A stretch of 36,394 nt of DNA. Source: a virus. Numbering within the stretch: the first letter of the stretch is position 1; each line of letters starts with the position of its first letter. The DNA is taken from IMG/VR virus record IMGVR_UViG_3300047335_000135, positions 1 to 36,394 of that record; one strand, 5' to 3'. Positions 2,992 through 28,645 of this stretch are shown one piece after another. The notes under the pieces are model-generated. The model was not told the DNA's origin, did no database searches, and saw only the letters and a list, made by a program, of their open reading frames with translations. The position numbers and the translations under genes were made by a program.

Positions 2992-3429
2992 ATGTCATGG
3001 ATAAAAACTTCAGATCAATTGCCCCCAAAAGATAGACGATTTATGGCATTAGATGCTCGGTATAATTATGACCCTCATACTATTATTGAGTTTATTGAAA
3101 AAGAAAGGGGGGCTTGTGATGATGAAGAATGCGAAGAATGTCCTGGGCATTATGTAGCACAAAAATATTGTGAAATGGATATATGTAGATGTCGAGAGCA
3201 ATATACTTTAGATGAGTTCTTATACTACTTTCCTTACTGGCAATTGTTGGAAGAGCCACCAAAGGAAATAGAAAGTTTTCACCTCTGTGGTTTTTGTAGA
3301 ATATCCGTACATGCAAAGTTTGTTTCATATTCAAAAGGATCAGATCCTAGAATATACAAAAATAGGCATATATGTGATTATTGTAGAAATCACGAGCGCA
3401 ATAGTAATTACACATTTTACGATCAATAA
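2992..3429 (+). CDS. Cys-rich hypothetical protein with a DUF551-like N-terminus
   Basis: MSWIKTSDQLPPKDRRF resembles the M-x-W-I-x-v-x-D-x-L-P start of DUF551 phage proteins (from memory). It has several CxxC pairs. The same N-terminal motif recurs in the ORF inside intron 3. Confidence 0.5.
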   Translation: MSWIKTSDQLPPKDRRFMALDARYNYDPHTIIEFIEKERGACDDEECEECPGHYVAQKYCEMDICRCREQYTLDEFLYYFPYWQLLEEPPKEIESFHLCGFCRISVHAKFVSYSKGSDPRIYKNRHICDYCRNHERNSNYTFYDQ

Positions 3430-3430
3430 T

Positions 3431-3450
3431 CCCACAACCGTGGGAATTTT
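3431..3450 (+). terminator. Weak terminator-like hairpin
   Basis: cccac-aacc-gtggg followed by aattttat. The stem is only 5 bp. Confidence 0.3.
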
Positions 3451-3645
3451 ATATCGCCTCTTCACACACCATTATTCTTAATGGTATATTCTCTCTGAGC
3501 AGTATCGAAGTGACGCTCGCTTCAACAAACCCCATCGGGCTGTATGAGTTTCGCCCACTCAACGTGCAGTATGCACATTTCTGGCTGTACAAGTCTCGCC
3601 AACTTACGTGTGTTTATGTGAAATAGCATAATGTAAGGTTTTTAC

Positions 3646-3681
3646 ATGCCTATTACAACTACAACCACATTACCTGCGCCT
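3646..3681 (+). CDS. Major capsid protein, exon 1 of 4 (MPITTTTTLPAP)
   Basis: ATG preceded by taaggt. The exon ends at T3681, which can form a U.G pair in a P1 helix: gcgccT 3676-3681 with Gggcgc 3691-3696. Joining to 4181 is in frame and gives LPAP|VQQSFSYKLL, which matches the N-terminal pattern of N4 gp56-type capsid proteins. Confidence 0.7.
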
Positions 3682-4180
3682 AAACGAGATGGGCGCGTTA
3701 AATCTTCTCTAATAGACTTGGAAACCGTAGTGGCGTTAAGTTAACCGGTGACAAGGGGCAAGATTATGAAAAGAAAATGTTCAAGCTGTAAACAGCAAAA
3801 AGAAGAAAATAAGTTTATGAAACCTGACCATAAAACATGCGAAAAATGCATTATGCGTGTTAGAAAATGGGAACGAAGAACTAAACGGTATTACTTTGGA
3901 CATCAAATATGATCAGCCTGAACGTAGCAAGCGAGAAGACTCTAGTGAATGATTGCTGTAAATACATTAGAAAGTTAAATATTTTCATAGAATGGTTGAG
4001 GGCCTGTGATCCAGATCCTAAAACTCGTCATGATATAATATGGGCTACTAATGAATTACACAAACTAGAGATGCGGTGCTCTGAACATTGTGGAAACACA
4101 GTGAGGGAAGCTCAATAAACTTCCTCGCCTAGAAAGTAGTGTGCAATAAGCACACCATAGGTCACAAAAGTAACAGATTG
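3682..4180 (+). mobile_element. Group I intron 1 in the capsid gene (499 nt)
   Basis: P1 / internal-guide pairing with a U.G pair. The conserved block aaatcttctctaatagacttggaaaccgtagtgg (3700-3733) is shared with intron 3. The shared 3' core is cctgaacgtagcaagcgagaagactc...gagatgcggtgctctgaacattg..gaaa..cagtgaggga. The intron ends ggtcacaaaagtaacagattG (omega-G at 4180). Confidence 0.75.
3766..3912 (+). CDS. Intron-1 ORF: 48-aa CxxC...CxxC zinc-ribbon-like protein
   Basis: My translation is MKRKCSSCKQQKEENKFMKPDHKTCEKCIMRVRKWERRTKRYYFGHQI. The ATG follows caaggggcaagatt, the same site where the intron-3 ORF starts. It is below the ORF-track cutoff. Confidence 0.4.
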   Translation: MKRKCSSCKQQKEENKFMKPDHKTCEKCIMRVRKWERRTKRYYFGHQI

Positions 4181-4456
4181 GTCCAACAAAGTTTCAGTTA
4201 CAAACTCTTATCGGTTCCTGTTCCAAACATGATCCATAAGATACCAGCTGAACTTAAAGTCATGCCTAGGAATGGTGGTGTTACGCTGAGAATGCGTAGA
4301 TATAATCCGTTACCAACTGCGTTAGTGCCACTTGGCAATACAGGTGTTACGCCTCCGAGTGTTAATTTGACGGCTATCGATATAGATGCCACCGTTTCAT
4401 TCTACGGTCAGTACATAATCCTTAACGAACAGGTTACTTTACAGAATCAAGACCCT
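4181..4456 (+). CDS. Major capsid protein, exon 2 of 4
   Basis: VQQSFSYKLLSVPVPNMIHKIPAELKVMPRNGGVTLRMRRYNPLPTALVPLGNTGVTPPSVNLTAIDIDATVSFYGQYIILNEQVTLQNQDP matches the conserved N-terminal half of HK97-fold / N4 gp56-type capsid proteins. The MCNKHTIGHKSNRL prefix of track ORF 4139..4477 is intron sequence. Confidence 0.85.
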
Positions 4457-5618
4457 AGACAAGCGATTGTAGCTTAACATTGACAGCGGTAAGTTTTTTC
4501 TGTAGCATAAGTAATATATTTACTTTTATGTGCGGAGAAAACATGAGAAAAGAGGAATTAATGTCATACCTTGCGGGAATAATTGATGGGGATGGAAGTT
4601 TTTCCATACTAAGAAAACAAGAAAAGAAAGACTTGTCTCCTTCATATTATCCATGCATTCAGTTTTCTAAATCATCAAATATACTTCCAAAATTATTACA
4701 TGATAACTTTGGAGGACGACTTTCTTGTGTTGATAGGAAAGAAAAAAGTGTCTTAGAGTATAAGTGGCGACTAGAAAGATCTGAGAAGTGTAGACCATTT
4801 TTAGAAGAAATAAGCCCATACTTACATATTAAGCAAGAGCAGGCTTTTGAATTGATAAGATTTATAGAAGATAATCCATTTAAGCGTGGAATAAGAGTAA
4901 CAAAAGAAGATATTTCATGCAGAGAAAACGCTAGAACTAGGGTTATGAATCTAAATGCTCGAAGGGATACCAAGTCTAAATTGAATAATTCGGTTAATTT
5001 TTCTTATAAGAGTGGTTTATTTTGGTCCTATTTGTCGGGATTATTGGATACTGACGGATCTTTTTCTATAAAGAAAGAGCGACGGGGAATTTATTCTCCT
5101 ATGGTATTGCTAAGTCTTATAAATTCTAAAGCAATCAATTTTATTAAAAACAATTGTAGTGTTGGTTCATTTTTTGTTGTTAAAGCACCACAGTTGCTTC
5201 AAAAGTTTTATTATCGTTTTGGTGTGTACAATAGAGATGAAGTTGTTGTTCTTCTAGATCAAGTAATTCCATATTTACTTCATAAAAAAAATTCTGCGGA
5301 AATCCTTAGAGATTTTTGTAATGGATATGTATCTCAGGGTGGAAGATATCTAAAGACAAAAGAGCAAGATGATTTTCGAGAAAACTGCTATCAAAGTTTG
5401 GTTAAATCAAATGGGGTCTATAAATCTCATCTAATAGACTTGGAACTCTTACCAGGCGATGCTGGAGACAACAGGGCGGAAGCAGCGGAAGCGTGCACCG
5501 TGAACGTAGTAAGCGATGAGACACCGGAAGGTGATGCGGTACTCTGAACTCTATGGAAACATAGAGAGGTAGGCTGAGAAGATCTACCCGCCAGAAATGG
5601 TCATAAAGTAACAGAATG
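4457..5618 (+). mobile_element. Group I intron 2 in the capsid gene (1162 nt), carrying a LAGLIDADG endonuclease gene
   Basis: P1 pairs agacccT (4450-4456) with Ggggtct (5413-5419), giving a U.G pair at the splice site. The guide is followed by aaatctcatctaatagacttggaa, homologous to introns 1 and 3. The 3' core is gaacgtagtaagcgatgagac...gatgcggtactctgaac, and the intron ends ggtcataaagtaacagaatG (5618). Confidence 0.8.
4543..5547 (+). CDS. LAGLIDADG homing endonuclease (double-motif, monomeric type)
   Basis: Two LAGLIDADG motifs: YLAGIIDGDGSF and YLSGLLDTDGSF. I chose the start at ATG 4543 (MRKEEL), 5 nt after ggag. The track ORF starts at 4480 with a non-ATG codon. The 3' end runs into the conserved intron core. 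Confidence 0.9.
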   Translation: MRKEELMSYLAGIIDGDGSFSILRKQEKKDLSPSYYPCIQFSKSSNILPKLLHDNFGGRLSCVDRKEKSVLEYKWRLERSEKCRPFLEEISPYLHIKQEQAFELIRFIEDNPFKRGIRVTKEDISCRENARTRVMNLNARRDTKSKLNNSVNFSYKSGLFWSYLSGLLDTDGSFSIKKERRGIYSPMVLLSLINSKAINFIKNNCSVGSFFVVKAPQLLQKFYYRFGVYNRDEVVVLLDQVIPYLLHKKNSAEILRDFCNGYVSQGGRYLKTKEQDDFRENCYQSLVKSNGVYKSHLIDLELLPGDAGDNRAEAAEACTVNVVSDETPEGDAVL

Positions 5619-5738
5619 GTTTTGAATCAGGCGGCTGAAAGGCTCGGGGTCTCATTGAGACAAACAGAGGATACGCTGACTCGTGATATGCTTGCAGCTA
5701 CAGCGGCCTTCATAAACTGTACTGCTGGTGTCAACGGT
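5619..5738 (+). CDS. Major capsid protein, exon 3 of 4
   Basis: VLNQAAERLGVSLRQTEDTLTRDMLAATAAFINCTAGVNG continues the capsid-family pattern (...DP|VL...G.q....D.ltRd.l.a.t). Both junctions are in frame. Confidence 0.85.
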
Positions 5739-6172
5739 AGAATTGTTGCCGTTGTAAAATCTTCTCTGATAGACTTGGAAACCGTAGTGGTGTTTAACTA
5801 ACCGGCGACAAGGGGCAAGATTATGGAATGGATAAAAGTAACAGATAAGACAAAAATAAGAGCAGATAGATTTTTAGTGTTACTTCCAAATGACTTAGCA
5901 AATGACCAATATTGGCCACACATAGCAAGTAGACATTTTGGAAGCAACATTGAATTCGATATTGATGAATTAGAGTCATGCTCTGGAGAATGGAGATTAT
6001 CTGACTTTGCTTATTATGCCTATCTTTATAATCAGCCTGAACGTAGCAAGCGAGAAGACTCACAGAAATGTGAGATGCGGTGCTCTGAACATTGCAGAAA
6101 TGCAGTGAGGGATAAGTAGAGAAAGTCCCCGCCAAATAGAAATTATTTGGTCACAAAAGTAACAGAAAAATG
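5739..6172 (+). mobile_element. Group I intron 3 in the capsid gene (434 nt)
   Basis: P1 pairs caacggT (5732-5738) with Gccgttg (5748-5754), giving a U.G pair. The block aaatcttctctgatagacttggaaaccgtagtgg (5757-5790) and the 3' core (6033-6112) are near-identical to intron 1. The intron ends ggtcacaaaagtaacagaaaaatG (6172). Confidence 0.8.
5823..6119 (+). CDS. Intron-3 ORF with a DUF551-like N-terminus; its 3' third overlaps the intron core
   Basis: MEWIKVTDKTKIRADRF parallels MSWIKTSDQLPPKDRRF of ORF 2992..3429. The tail QPERSKREDSQKCEMRCSEHCRNAVRDK is read-through of conserved intron RNA, so the true coding extent is uncertain. Confidence 0.4.
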   Translation: MEWIKVTDKTKIRADRFLVLLPNDLANDQYWPHIASRHFGSNIEFDIDELESCSGEWRLSDFAYYAYLYNQPERSKREDSQKCEMRCSEHCRNAVRDK

Positions 6173-6688
6173 GACAACCCTACTGAAATTCAACGACCTG
6201 ATGTTGATACGGTGGTGCGAACATTGCTTGATAACGATGCTTACACCGTATTAGATAACATACAGGGTGAAGACCGTTTCGGTACTGCTCCTGTTCGAGA
6301 TGCGTACTTTGCTCTTTGCAGTACTCAACTTACTGGTAACTTAGATGCAGTTGCTGGATTTATTCATAAGAATAACTATCCATCACCTATGAATGCGTTA
6401 CGAAGCGAGTGGGGCTCCATTGGCAACCTACGTTTCTTGATTTCTAGTATTGGTTCTGCAATTCCTTTTGCATCTGCAAATGGTAATACCGTATACAACA
6501 TATTCTGTGTTGGTATGGAAGCATATGCCTGCGTGGAACAAGATGGATATAGTGCGGCCTTTATATATCGACCACCGATATATGATGGTCCATTGGCTCT
6601 TAATGCGTCTGTTGGGTACAAGTTTGCTGAGGTCCCGCGTATCTTAAATGATGCCTGGGTAATCAATTTACGTGCAACACAAGCCTAA
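6173..6688 (+). CDS. Major capsid protein, exon 4 of 4
   Basis: DNPTEIQ...SEWGSIGNLRFLISS...VYNIFCVGMEAYACVEQDG...PLALNASVGYKFAEVPRILNDAWVINLRAT matches the C-terminal GE.G...g.RF....Vy...v.G..ay..v...g....PL....vG.K......iLn..w pattern of this capsid family. The spliced product is 315 aa. Confidence 0.9.
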   Translation, partial: DNPTEIQRPDVDTVVRTLLDNDAYTVLDNIQGEDRFGTAPVRDAYFALCSTQLTGNLDAVAGFIHKNNYPSPMNALRSEWGSIGNLRFLISSIGSAIPFASANGNTVYNIFCVGMEAYACVEQDGYSAAFIYRPPIYDGPLALNASVGYKFAEVPRILNDAWVINLRATQA

Positions 6689-6697
6689 GGAGTAACT

Positions 6698-7771
6698 ATG
6701 AATAATACTATTACTCTACAAGGTCAATTTACATCAACAGGTGCTAATATCATCATACCTATACCATCGGGTGTAAGTTGGATGAGAGTGCTTAACCAAA
6801 CAGCGCTTACGCAAGCCGCTGCCGTTTTAGGGTATGATTTCTTCTGGCAGGTAGGCATGCCTATTTCCCAGGGTGTTGTGTGGACTAAAAATGGTGGTTT
6901 AGCTAATAACTCGGTTACTGTTGGTGAACTTGCTGCTAATAATGGCTTTACTGTTATTAATACATCTATTGCTACTCCTGGTGTGTCATATGCTATTACT
7001 GGGTTTAGTGCCGCTAATCCTCCAGTTGTTCTCACAGCGACTACTCCTCTTGTGGGTCAGTTTGTACGATTGGCAAACCTCAATAACCAACCGCAATTTG
7101 CAGGTATCGATTTCCAAGTTACTGCAGTTAACCCTGGAGTAAGTTTTACACTTGGTGGTGTTAACGCCGTAGGTACTGTAGTTTCTAACGCGGGTAGTTA
7201 TAGAGTTATTCCTGTATCTCAATGGTATCCAACCCATCGAGCTATTACCTATATGTCAGCTGAAGTAACACCTGTAATCTATACTTCTGTTAGTAGTGGA
7301 TACCAAGTTGGCCAAGAAATACGTCTTAACTTCCCTGGTGGCACTCAAGTCTGGGGTAATTATGCGCTTCTTGATGGTATGCAAACAACTATTCTTGCTG
7401 TGGGTAACGCTCCTGTTATTGTAACCGGTAATGAACCTACAACACTCTTTACTATTACAGTAAATATAGATACATCAGCGTATGGCCCTTGGGCATTTGC
7501 TGGTCCTACGTACTATCCACCTGCTGCTTTAGTTCCGTTCTCTCCCGCTCAAACAACACCGATCGGTGAATATACCTCTATAGCATTACTTAATAACGTT
7601 AACATCCTCAGTGATGCAACGTTAAACACTGCATTTATAGGTATGCAACTTGGTGGTGGTCTGCGCGGAGCCGGCGCTCAAAACGCAGGACCTGCTGGAG
7701 GATTCAATACTGGTACTGGTATTGGTGACTCTATGTTCTGGATGGCTGGTAATACCTTCACGTTTTATTGA
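6698..7771 (+). CDS. Virion structural protein (putative), with two small beta-barrel-like repeats
   Basis: Strong RBS taaggagtaact. It lies immediately after the capsid gene. Segments ANPPVVLTATTPLVGQFVRLANL...FQVTAVNPGVSFTL and VTPVIYTSVSSGYQVGQEIRLNF...TTLFTITVNIDTS resemble the core of ORF 8283..8660. Confidence 0.5.
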   Translation: MNNTITLQGQFTSTGANIIIPIPSGVSWMRVLNQTALTQAAAVLGYDFFWQVGMPISQGVVWTKNGGLANNSVTVGELAANNGFTVINTSIATPGVSYAITGFSAANPPVVLTATTPLVGQFVRLANLNNQPQFAGIDFQVTAVNPGVSFTLGGVNAVGTVVSNAGSYRVIPVSQWYPTHRAITYMSAEVTPVIYTSVSSGYQVGQEIRLNFPGGTQVWGNYALLDGMQTTILAVGNAPVIVTGNEPTTLFTITVNIDTSAYGPWAFAGPTYYPPAALVPFSPAQTTPIGEYTSIALLNNVNILSDATLNTAFIGMQLGGGLRGAGAQNAGPAGGFNTGTGIGDSMFWMAGNTFTFY

Positions 7772-22237: not shown

Positions 22238-22897
22238 TTATGAGCTCTTTCTTTGATTTACCGTAGTGCGTATTTTGTCTATGGTCTTGAGATATTGATC
22301 TTTAGGTATGTCGCTCATTTTCTGTATATTAAACTGTTTCAGTATTTTTTCTGCTATATCAGTATGTTCGCCTATTTCAAACATAATGTTCTTGATATTA
22401 TCTGAGCTTACTCTCTCGTAATTATCTCTGAGTATTGGTGCATTACCTAGCTTAGGCGTATCAGGTTTGGTCTGTATTTTTTCTTGATCTTCTCTCTCTT
22501 CTTCTCCGTCGTTGTCCTTATCTCCGTGTATCCCAAAAACAAGGCTGATGAGGCTCTTTTTCCTATATGTGAGATGCGATCCCCATGCTTGATCTTGAGT
22601 TTGTTGTTTGTTGGGTTGCACATCGTTTTCTAAAGGCATAAAACACTTTATCCATTGACCACTAGAGTGTAGCAGCATGATATAGAGAGTTTTTCCATAG
22701 TTATCACGTTCTACATCTTTTATAAAAGCTATACCATACTTTGATAGTGGGGCTCTTATAGTATCAAGGAAATCATTTGCCTGAGCGTATGTATATTTTC
22801 CAAATGGGTTAATTGCATGTGTTCCAGGGTTATGCATTTCTCCCTGGGCCTTTGCAAGCGCAGTAGCTATTTCATTTATATGTTCGCTGTGGGTCAT
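22238..22897 (-). CDS. erf: ERF-family single-strand annealing recombinase
   Basis: INEIATALAKAQGEM...GKYTYAQANDFLDTIRAPLSKYGIAF...LLHSSGQW...QAWGSHLTYRKKSLISLVFGI follows the ERF superfamily pattern (ALAKAQ...YA.L..v.d.v.p.L...Gi...H.SG....G...TY.rRY.l....gi). Confidence 0.75.
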   Translation of the reverse strand: MTHSEHINEIATALAKAQGEMHNPGTHAINPFGKYTYAQANDFLDTIRAPLSKYGIAFIKDVERDNYGKTLYIMLLHSSGQWIKCFMPLENDVQPNKQQTQDQAWGSHLTYRKKSLISLVFGIHGDKDNDGEEEREDQEKIQTKPDTPKLGNAPILRDNYERVSSDNIKNIMFEIGEHTDIAEKILKQFNIQKMSDIPKDQYLKTIDKIRTTVNQRKSS

Positions 22898-28180: not shown

Positions 28181-28645
28181 ATGATTCTGTTGGGCATAGA
28201 TCCAGGAACGCAGTACTTGGGCTTCTCTCTATTAACTGACCCAAAGAAGCCAAAACTATTACAGTATGGTTGCCTTAAGCTCAATCCCAAATCGAGTATC
28301 CCTGATCGCCTGGAAGAGATACATACGTTCTTTGCTGCTAAGATACTGAGCGATGAAGTAACGCATATGGCTATAGAGACACCATTTTTGGGTAAGAACA
28401 TACAATCATTTATGAAGCTATGCTATGTGCGTGGCATACTCTATCTCCTAGCAACACAAAACGATTTGGTGCTGTACGAATACTCACCGACAGAAGTAAA
28501 GAAGGCTATATGTACCTTTGGTGGTGCTCCTAAAGAACAAGTAGCACGCGTATTATGGCATATGTTTAAGGGGCTAGAGTCAGATCTTCGTGATGATATA
28601 ACGGATGCTATAGCAGTAGGGTTGTGCGGATTATGGAAGAAGTAG
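28181..28645 (+). CDS. ruvC: RuvC-type Holliday junction resolvase
   Basis: MILLGIDPGTQYLGF (Asp), MAIETPF (Glu), K..YVRG, P.EVKKA..G.G.A.KEQV and DDITDAIAVG (Asp/Asp) reproduce the bacterial RuvC catalytic tetrad and spacing. Confidence 0.85.
   Translation: MILLGIDPGTQYLGFSLLTDPKKPKLLQYGCLKLNPKSSIPDRLEEIHTFFAAKILSDEVTHMAIETPFLGKNIQSFMKLCYVRGILYLLATQNDLVLYEYSPTEVKKAICTFGGAPKEQVARVLWHMFKGLESDLRDDITDAIAVGLCGLWKK

Follow-up and report, generated by a model that had tools for sequence, protein, structure and literature searches.

Protein genes housed within group I introns are known from several settings: the td intron of phage T4 carries the gene of I-TevI in a loop of its P6 region, from where the open reading frame (ORF) can run into the core of the intron, and the ribosome-binding region of this gene overlaps with RNA structure; in fungal mitochondria, rps3 and other host or non-nuclease genes are housed in group I introns and expressed from there. 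A single gene with three related group I introns, orf142 of the Staphylococcus phage Twort, was reportedly described by Landthaler and Shub in 1999; to our knowledge, diverse passenger genes have not been reported in these introns. Here we describe a gene for an N4-gp56-family major capsid protein, split by three introns of one family, in the IMG/VR virus record IMGVR_UViG_3300047335_000135 (positions 1 to 36,394; this whole stretch of 36,394 bp is termed the window and is a complete phage genome with direct terminal repeats). The first and the third introns (I1 and I3) each contain a small ORF at the same internal point. We consider it probable that these are two copies of one mobile, capsid-specialised group I lineage, whose P6 loop is a slot for small non-nuclease genes.

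Group I introns of phages and bacteria with ORFs in their peripheral loops have been reviewed, and these ORFs are described as homing endonucleases; the Twort introns are cited in the same work (PMC3984707). The introns reported here resemble the T4 td intron in residing in an essential phage gene and in having the ORF in a loop protruding from the core. However, the known ORFs of the td/I-TevI type are homing endonucleases tied to their site, whereas here there are dozens of unrelated non-nuclease genes of 30-85 aa, which are uncoupled from the site and almost all of which lack a stop codon of their own. As in Twort orf142, several closely related group I introns are crowded in one phage gene; unlike those of Twort, the family has members at over 20 sites in a single capsid gene when the phage population is taken as a whole, and is unrecognised by Rfam. 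With the rps3 introns they share a non-endonuclease protein gene in a group I intron loop, its expression being predicted in the present case; there, however, one conserved housekeeping gene is fixed in one intron, whereas here hypervariable, exchangeable viral cassettes have free-standing homologues. Finally, the passengers are comparable to phage ‘morons’ and the hyperplastic regions of small genes: they are small, fast-turnover accessory genes, and members of the same families stand free between the scaffold and capsid genes. Unlike morons, the passengers lie inside a ribozyme and are fused with tails that the core encodes.

The limits of exons and introns were set with P0001, a 315-aa homologue without interruption, by a tblastn search of the window; uninterrupted homologues of this gene are typically ~315 aa. 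The locus has the following layout:

2992..3429, plus strand: 145-aa DUF551-like gene, free-standing, in the variable region that separates the scaffold-like and capsid genes
3646..3681, plus strand: capsid exon 1 (E1), 12 codons, T-terminated, from tblastn of P0001; joined straight to exon 2 in locus L084
3682..4180, plus strand: intron 1 (I1), group I, capsid site 12/13, 499 nt; guide GGGCGC (3691-3696) pairs with exon GCGCCT; ends in G
3766..3912, plus strand: I1 cargo ORF1 in the P6 loop, 48-aa basic protein, a predicted zinc ribbon, with its own TGA stop
3909..4118, plus strand: I1 ORF2, 69 aa, its ATG overlapping the stop of ORF1 (ATGA); coding status uncertain
4181..4456, plus strand: capsid exon 2 (E2), from tblastn of P0001
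4457..5618, plus strand: intron 2 (I2), of the same family as I1 and I3; guide GGGGTCT at 5412-5418; the family hidden Markov model (HMM) matches the core at 5400-5625
4543-5547: I2 double-motif LAGLIDADG ORF in the P1 loop (Pfam LAGLIDADG_1, E 9e-9)
5619..5738, plus strand: capsid exon 3 (E3), from tblastn of P0001
5739..6172, plus strand: intron 3 (I3), group I, capsid site 144/145, 434 nt; guide GCCGTTG (5748-5754) pairs with exon CAACGGT; ends in G
5823..6119, plus strand: I3 cargo ORF, 98 aa, with a DUF551-like N-terminus
6173..6688, plus strand: capsid exon 4 (E4), from tblastn; 90% identical to P0001

In I2 the guide sequence is ~950 nt from the splice site, with the LAGLIDADG gene lying within the P1 loop.

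We collected 80 related capsid loci (designated by L numbers), in which introns of the same family occupy at least 15 sites of the capsid gene; many of the loci have an uninterrupted gene, and many alleles are intron-less. A precise intron-minus allele of the I1 site is present in L084, an NCBI metagenome contig from a ~90%-identical phage, where the equivalents of window positions 3681 and 4181 are contiguous at 2477/2478. The minimal form of the family is only 190-215 nt. Because Rfam is silent on these introns, their group I structure was tested by a covariation analysis of our own: a structure comprising P3, P4, P5, P6, the P7 pseudoknot, P8 and two 3' hairpins was hand-written on 21 minimal introns. 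Across these 91.5% of the cells are paired, as against 40-48% when the partners are slid by 1-3 columns; pairing is complete (100%) in P3 (7/7), P4, P6, the P7 pseudoknot and P8, where both sides change in 20 of the 24 pairs. The covariation score is 0.56, versus 0.07-0.15 for slid partners, and is reached by none of 500 shuffles. Covariation thus establishes the group I architecture. P7 contains an invariant G-C pair (columns 131/192) and a covarying pair (129/193) with an unpaired column between them; the former lies within a GACUA-like element (..A[C]GACUAA) and is the predicted guanosine-binding pair. We take this element to resemble the Tetrahymena R element. P1 forms with a U.G wobble in all three introns of the window (I1 GCGCCU/GGGCGC; I3 CAACGGU/GCCGUUG; I2 AGACCCU/GGGGUCU), the 5' exon ends in T opposite a guide G in all 15 introns inspected, and a 3'-terminal G (omega G) directly precedes the exon in the three window introns and 12 others. 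By these sequence features, the introns are group I introns of a compact ~200-nt type with P1 and P3-P9 but no P2, and are predicted to be self-splicing.

Two further features of these introns may be recorded here. Some members have the canonical 11-nt GAAA-tetraloop receptor (CCUAAG..UAUGG) in P5 (L065:4404-4618, L029:2038-2232, L004:4181-4415), and GAAA loops are found in P8 and the 3' hairpins of the family, suggesting a long-range dock like that of Azoarcus-type introns. The frame of exon 1 reads 20 codons into I1 to a TAA stop (3742-3744) inside P5 (window 3646-3744); therefore, ribosomes on the unspliced RNA would unwind P1-P5.

The earlier note on this DNA, whose coordinates imply the same intron limits, took I1 and I3 for near-copies, and pairwise alignment bears this out for the block 3700-3765 versus 5757-5822, which is gap-free and identical at 60 of 66 positions (91%). 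The stretch spanning P6', P7 and P3' (~3913-3941 versus 6035-6063) is identical. The near-identity also claimed for the 3' cores holds for their first ~45 nt and was overstated for the last ~70 nt: over 4062-4180 versus 6066-6172 the identity is 67%, the peripheral hairpins having diverged, with two compensatory pair changes between I1 and I3 in the hairpin that we call P9. Across the core as a whole the two are 88% identical. As had been noticed, both cargo ORFs open at one and the same internal site, with an ATG immediately after ..caaggggcaagatt (at 3766 in I1 and at 5823 in I3), which we locate in the P6 loop (L6). The ~125 extra nucleotides of I1 are likewise real: they amount to 126 nt (3942-4067) and are placed in the P8 loop. 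In the subclade that includes I1 and I3, every sampled member has a small sense ORF.

Mapping with an HMM of ORF-less introns places nearly all insertions of the family at one point, namely the P6 loop. Its occupants are of three kinds: antisense single-motif LAGLIDADG genes of 157-176 aa; none at all; and small sense ORFs that begin from the junction ATG. The LAGLIDADG genes lie on the minus strand of the locus (L005:5098-5628, L008:3328-3831, L011:1876-2379, L017:5198-5677 and 12 others); we know of no other phage example of antisense intron endonuclease genes. In a wider sample, an exact 27-nt core motif retrieved 84 IMG/VR contigs with 94 cores, 90 of which lie within or next to exons of this capsid gene and precede over 20 distinct exon starts. 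The wider sample includes 70 distinct P6-loop inserts of at least 80 nt (mean 173 nt, 30% guanine plus cytosine). As many as 68 of the 70 are fully open in one frame, which reads on into the core as QPERSKRED, whereas the other sense frames are open in 0 and 3, and the antisense frames in 3-8; an ATG is found within the first 9 nt in 66. Such one-sided openness combined with an early ATG is not what chance RNA extensions would produce. The fixed frame would carry a ribosome through P6', P7, P3', P8 and P9, and an alternative frame into the core would stop immediately (GCC TGA).

Cargo families of the slot show coding selection: in four of five further cargo pairs, the ratio of non-synonymous to synonymous rates (dN/dS) is 0.14-0.33, or the proportion of synonymous differences (pS) is 0.93 against 0.15 for non-synonymous ones (pN). 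Approximately 20 of 62 distinct cargoes begin with a DUF551-type motif (M.WI..), and ~13 of the 62 have at least two CxxC pairs. Five slot ORFs of sibling introns, four of the 62 and that of L036, pass the Pfam gathering score for DUF551. For one more cargo family, a paralogue stands free upstream of the capsid gene in the same phage (L068:3744-3908). A fourth intron of a close relative of the window phage, at site 181/182 (L085:788-1326, also in L084 and L087, corresponding to window position 6284), contains a 136-aa ORF, P0127, which reads in order P6-loop cargo, core, P8-loop module and core: a protein made up of loop- and ribozyme-encoded segments.

The I1 cargo, ORF1, is a 48-aa CxxC..CxxC peptide, as first noticed, with the spacing C5-x2-C8-x16-C25-x2-C28, and AAGGGG lies 7 nt upstream of its ATG. 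A homologue stands free in L088 (2584-2739), coding for a 51-aa, 68% identical protein with all four cysteines kept; in this related phage (L047/L088), whose capsid gene is uninterrupted, the free-standing gene comes directly after the scaffold-like gene. Between the I1 ORF and the L088 copy the synonymous differences (Sd) number 22.2 over 22.0 synonymous sites, which is saturated, and the non-synonymous differences (Nd) 24.8 over 119 sites (pN 0.21). Comparison of the two sequences thus gives a clear signal of protein-level constraint in two genomic settings. With both CxxC knuckles conserved between the window and L088, the protein is assigned to the zinc ribbon or treble-clef type and is predicted to bind metal. 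Pfam returns weak RING and zinc-ribbon matches only, below the cut-offs (E about 1e-3), and the Atlas feature search a weak Stc1/double-zinc-ribbon lead only (score 0.88-0.90). A word-indexed homologue search found nothing, the GenBank phage collection held no match, and a metagenome scan for additional relatives yielded none. In L088 a further small cysteine-rich gene of 89 aa (2726-2995) adjoins the free-standing homologue, and it looks as though these phages keep a reservoir of tiny genes for putative zinc-binding proteins between scaffold and capsid.

I1 is an exception to the fixed-frame rule, as ORF1 ends at its own TGA before the core. The overlapping ORF2 reads the core, then the 126-nt P8-loop insert, and then the core again. 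The P8-loop module is homologous to that of P0127 (BLASTP 2e-14, including the core-encoded tail), and in L085 it is in frame with the cargo. Taken alone, the module in this putative gene has a pS of 0.60 versus a pN of 0.37 over 33 codons.

The 98-aa I3 ORF derives its residues 1-69 (5823-6029) from the P6-loop insert and its C-terminal 29 residues (QPERSKRED..) from the ribozyme core. The resemblance of its N-terminus to the free-standing gene 2992..3429, pointed out in the earlier note, is supported by BLASTP (E 2e-4, 31% over 65 aa). That gene matches Pfam DUF551 at E 0.0027 and 19 bits, under the cut-off of 22, and the profile of DUF551 cargo ORFs in hhalign at 79% over residues 1-23; by sequence it is probably paralogous to the N-terminal portion of the I3 cargo. 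DUF551, a phage domain of no known function, is portable (PMC10834534). The I3 ORF has no Pfam match at E <= 1 and no PHROGs match; it stays under the gathering score of DUF551 (PF04448), and a full-length domain with the C-terminal HWMPLP-type motif is absent. Its structural neighbours in the Atlas include three DUF551 clusters (template modelling score 0.55-0.58), the query being a poor model. A word-indexed search recovered only the ORF itself, and a sequence search of the PDB found nothing. Five non-self phmmer matches to residues 1-72 were dismissed as artefacts: these are long repeat proteins (CUB, BRCA2 repeats and an 814-aa tandem-repeat protein) with summed weak matches. λ Ea22 was considered and rejected as a solved DUF551 structure, DUF551 being assigned to a different Ea22 variant (PMC10834534). 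Elsewhere in the window, a 54-aa cysteine-rich ORF (956-1120) ends in YWMELPEMP, which resembles the C-terminal motif of DUF551; it could be one more small gene related to DUF551 in the variable region between scaffold and capsid.

Several observations weigh against our reading. On the side of the RNA, Rfam has no match at E <= 1 in window 3000-7500, none at the gathering score in 12 loci, and none even at E <= 10 for an ORF-less 215-nt intron (L042:5770-6020). On the side of the proteins, the selection test for I1 is a matter of one pair and 47 codons, and in one close cargo pair (L058 versus L029) dN/dS is ~1. AlphaFold models of the I1 and I3 proteins are of low confidence (predicted local distance difference test score 64 and 48, respectively). 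The I3 ORF matches the profile of DUF551 cargo ORFs (hhalign 86%, E 5e-6) over residues 1-21 only and is without the LP and HWMPLP motifs of that family; it has no sequence variants, and two very large protein libraries contain no true homologue of it. It may be a divergent or a decaying DUF551-type gene. Lastly, AAGGGG, the putative ribosome-binding site, is part of P4'/P6, where it would be sequestered in the folded ribozyme, and is kept for RNA pairing in ORF-less introns too.

With respect to the first of these points, no family of Rfam 15 matches this compact class, either in the window or at L042:5789-6003; as a consequence, standard annotation of viromes will miss or mis-annotate capsid genes that are split in this way. 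The isolation of the I3 ORF and the conservation of AAGGGG for RNA pairing, together with the fact that the core encodes ~30% of the length of the former, also speak for the alternative that the ORFs are untranslated and the inserts merely extend the P6 RNA with incidental open frames. This is very unlikely in the face of the openness of AT-rich inserts in a single frame, their initial ATGs, the conservation of the I1 protein despite saturated synonymous change, and the Pfam-significant DUF551 domains in the slot.

A different explanation for the small ORFs, raised in the earlier note, is that homing endonuclease genes formerly filled the loop and have decayed to these remnants. The loss of endonuclease genes from introns is a known stage of their life cycle (PMC3984707), sibling introns have the above-mentioned LAGLIDADG genes in this very P6 loop on the opposite strand, and I2 has one in P1. 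However, comparison of the I1 and I3 inserts with ten LAGLIDADG genes of the family and the I2 gene (tblastn and blastn) gave a best E of 0.16 in a tiny search space. Neither ORF matches a nuclease family in Pfam or PHROGs, in keeping with the absence of endonuclease motifs first remarked upon, and ~30 sibling cargo ORFs scanned in Pfam had no nuclease family either. The cargoes are on the sense strand with a fixed ATG and one open frame, and that of I1 is conserved with a free-standing homologue. Descent from nucleases is thus extremely unlikely, and the evidence favours what the same note had offered as its second option, a different kind of intron passenger.

The distribution of cargoes over sites bears on their role. 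At site 12/13 the intron of L029 is 96% like I1 in the core, making it the nearest relative of I1, yet it has a different cargo; this cargo is 90% identical to that of L058 at site 184/185 and has relatives at 172/173 and 181/182. At site 144/145 the intron of L042 is empty, and that of L019 has a cysteine-rich ORF unrelated to the I3 cargo found there in the window. There is thus no coupling between a cargo and its insertion site. One cargo family at four sites, and different cargoes at 12/13 and at 144/145, speak against a site-specific homing enzyme as the cargo. Cassettes have sharp borders that are constant across the introns compared; along with the uncoupling, this would fit an exchange of cassettes by recombination across conserved flanks.

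It could still be proposed that the cargoes are mobility factors of a new kind: either nucleases of very small size, or adaptors that bind DNA and bring a nuclease of the host or phage to alleles without the intron. Such factors would account for introns that are clearly mobile without an endonuclease gene, I3 being identical across diverged exons with conversion tracts of <10 nt and the family having reached many capsid sites; many cargoes are basic and predicted to bind zinc, and free-standing copies lie in the intergenic variable region, like free-standing homing genes. This is unlikely, on the other hand, given the uncoupling of cargo from site, the more than 60 unrelated cargoes on one intron chassis, the retention of the I1 homologue in a phage with an intron-less capsid gene, and the lack of a nuclease motif.

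Conservation is far higher in the introns than in the adjoining exons. I3 is identical at all 434 positions in L084, L085 and L087, while the flanking exons differ at 13 of 78 positions in exon 3 (17%) and at 7 of 112 at the start of exon 4 (6%), with the nearest differences 10 nt upstream and 6 nt downstream of the splice sites. The lineage of these three loci is without I1 and has a different intron at the I2 site. I3 has therefore moved between phages recently, and independently of the other introns. Its nearest relative by core is the L058 intron at a different site (184/185; 92%). The proposal of a recent duplication or spread within a single gene is consequently right insofar as I1 and I3 are sibling copies of one intron type; each is closer to introns elsewhere, and a local duplication in this genome is not favoured, L084 having an unchanged I3 and no I1. 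Hence, the family has spread across a phage population and over many capsid sites.

How these introns move can be compared with the collaborative (trans) homing of ORF-less introns and with their ectopic spread by reverse splicing (PMC3984707; PMC1299323). As in these processes, introns without a nuclease have spread, and related ones sit at sites that share the guide-paired 5' exon sequence; unlike in collaborative homing, no partner nuclease was identified, and the exon that separates I3 from the LAGLIDADG-bearing I2 site was not co-converted when I3 moved. Hitch-hiking of I3 by co-conversion from the I2 LAGLIDADG site was considered and discarded, as I3 is unchanged even though those 13 positions differ in the intervening exon. 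The same 12 nt, CTGCGCCT/GTTC, are found at sites 12/13 and 184/185, whose introns also use one guide, GGGCGC (window 3673-3685 with 4181-4184; L058:5545-5552 with 5928-5931), possibly a trace of ectopic spread guided by P1 pairing. A pattern of this type is expected if new sites are chosen by guide pairing or by a loosely specific nuclease (PMC3984707). Separately, the introns at these two sites in L029 and L058 have the same cargo.

Beyond the capsid locus, the genome encodes a P22-type portal and two recombination proteins:

22238-22897, minus strand: ERF-family single-strand annealing protein
28181-28645, plus strand: RuvC resolvase

These could be a means of short-homology recombination for the exchange of introns or cassettes. 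No reverse transcriptase was found among 10 further window ORFs scanned. The lineage of the phage is uncultured: its capsid protein is at most 26% identical to that of any cultured phage in the GenBank phage collection, and a search of this collection with the DNA of the locus gave no match.

The strict frame through P6', P7, P3', P8 and P9, kept in 68 of 70 inserts where another would stop at once, is not explained by the function of the cargo alone. It invites the idea that the cargo, or its translation through the core, serves the intron, either as a maturase-like RNA chaperone or as a switch between translation and splicing; basic zinc ribbons, moreover, often bind nucleic acid. Yet the ORF-less members of ~200 nt must splice unaided in an essential gene, the cargoes are mutually unrelated, and the I1 ORF stops before the core while its free-standing homologue lives without a capsid intron. 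A service of this kind is accordingly quite unlikely.

Returning to the reading of a P6-loop slot in a mobile capsid intron, we envisage that it would work as follows. The ribozyme, formed by P1 and P3-P9, would excise itself from the late capsid transcript, and its P6 loop would act as a cassette slot for small protein genes. A cassette would start with the ATG right after the P4'/P6 strand, with AAGGGG 7 nt upstream acting like a ribosome-binding site, and, normally being without its own stop, would read in the fixed frame into the core (..QPERSKRED..). The passengers would be ordinary small phage accessory proteins, such as zinc ribbons and DUF551-type proteins, that also occur free-standing between the scaffold and capsid genes. 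Cassettes may be swapped between intron copies by recombination over the conserved core flanks, and the introns may pass between phages by an event at the level of DNA with almost no flanking conversion. Translation of the cargo would take place late, from the precursor or from the excised intron.

It is conceivable, though we put this forward only tentatively and regard it as rather doubtful, that the lineage is a gene-cassette vehicle, which captures genes of the variable region, expresses them from the strongest late gene and, lacking its own nuclease, still spreads and reshuffles them among phages. Reading in one frame through the catalytic core would then couple translation to splicing, or would give all passengers one core-encoded tail. 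More speculatively, the passengers might be host-interference proteins that are made late and possibly packaged in the virion. If one lineage does carry more than 60 unrelated non-nuclease mini-genes under selection, accessory genes can be transported by, and expressed from, self-splicing introns. A new genomic context is given to DUF551 and to several orphan zinc-ribbon families, and a tractable question is raised as to how a nuclease-less intron moves so precisely between diverged phages.

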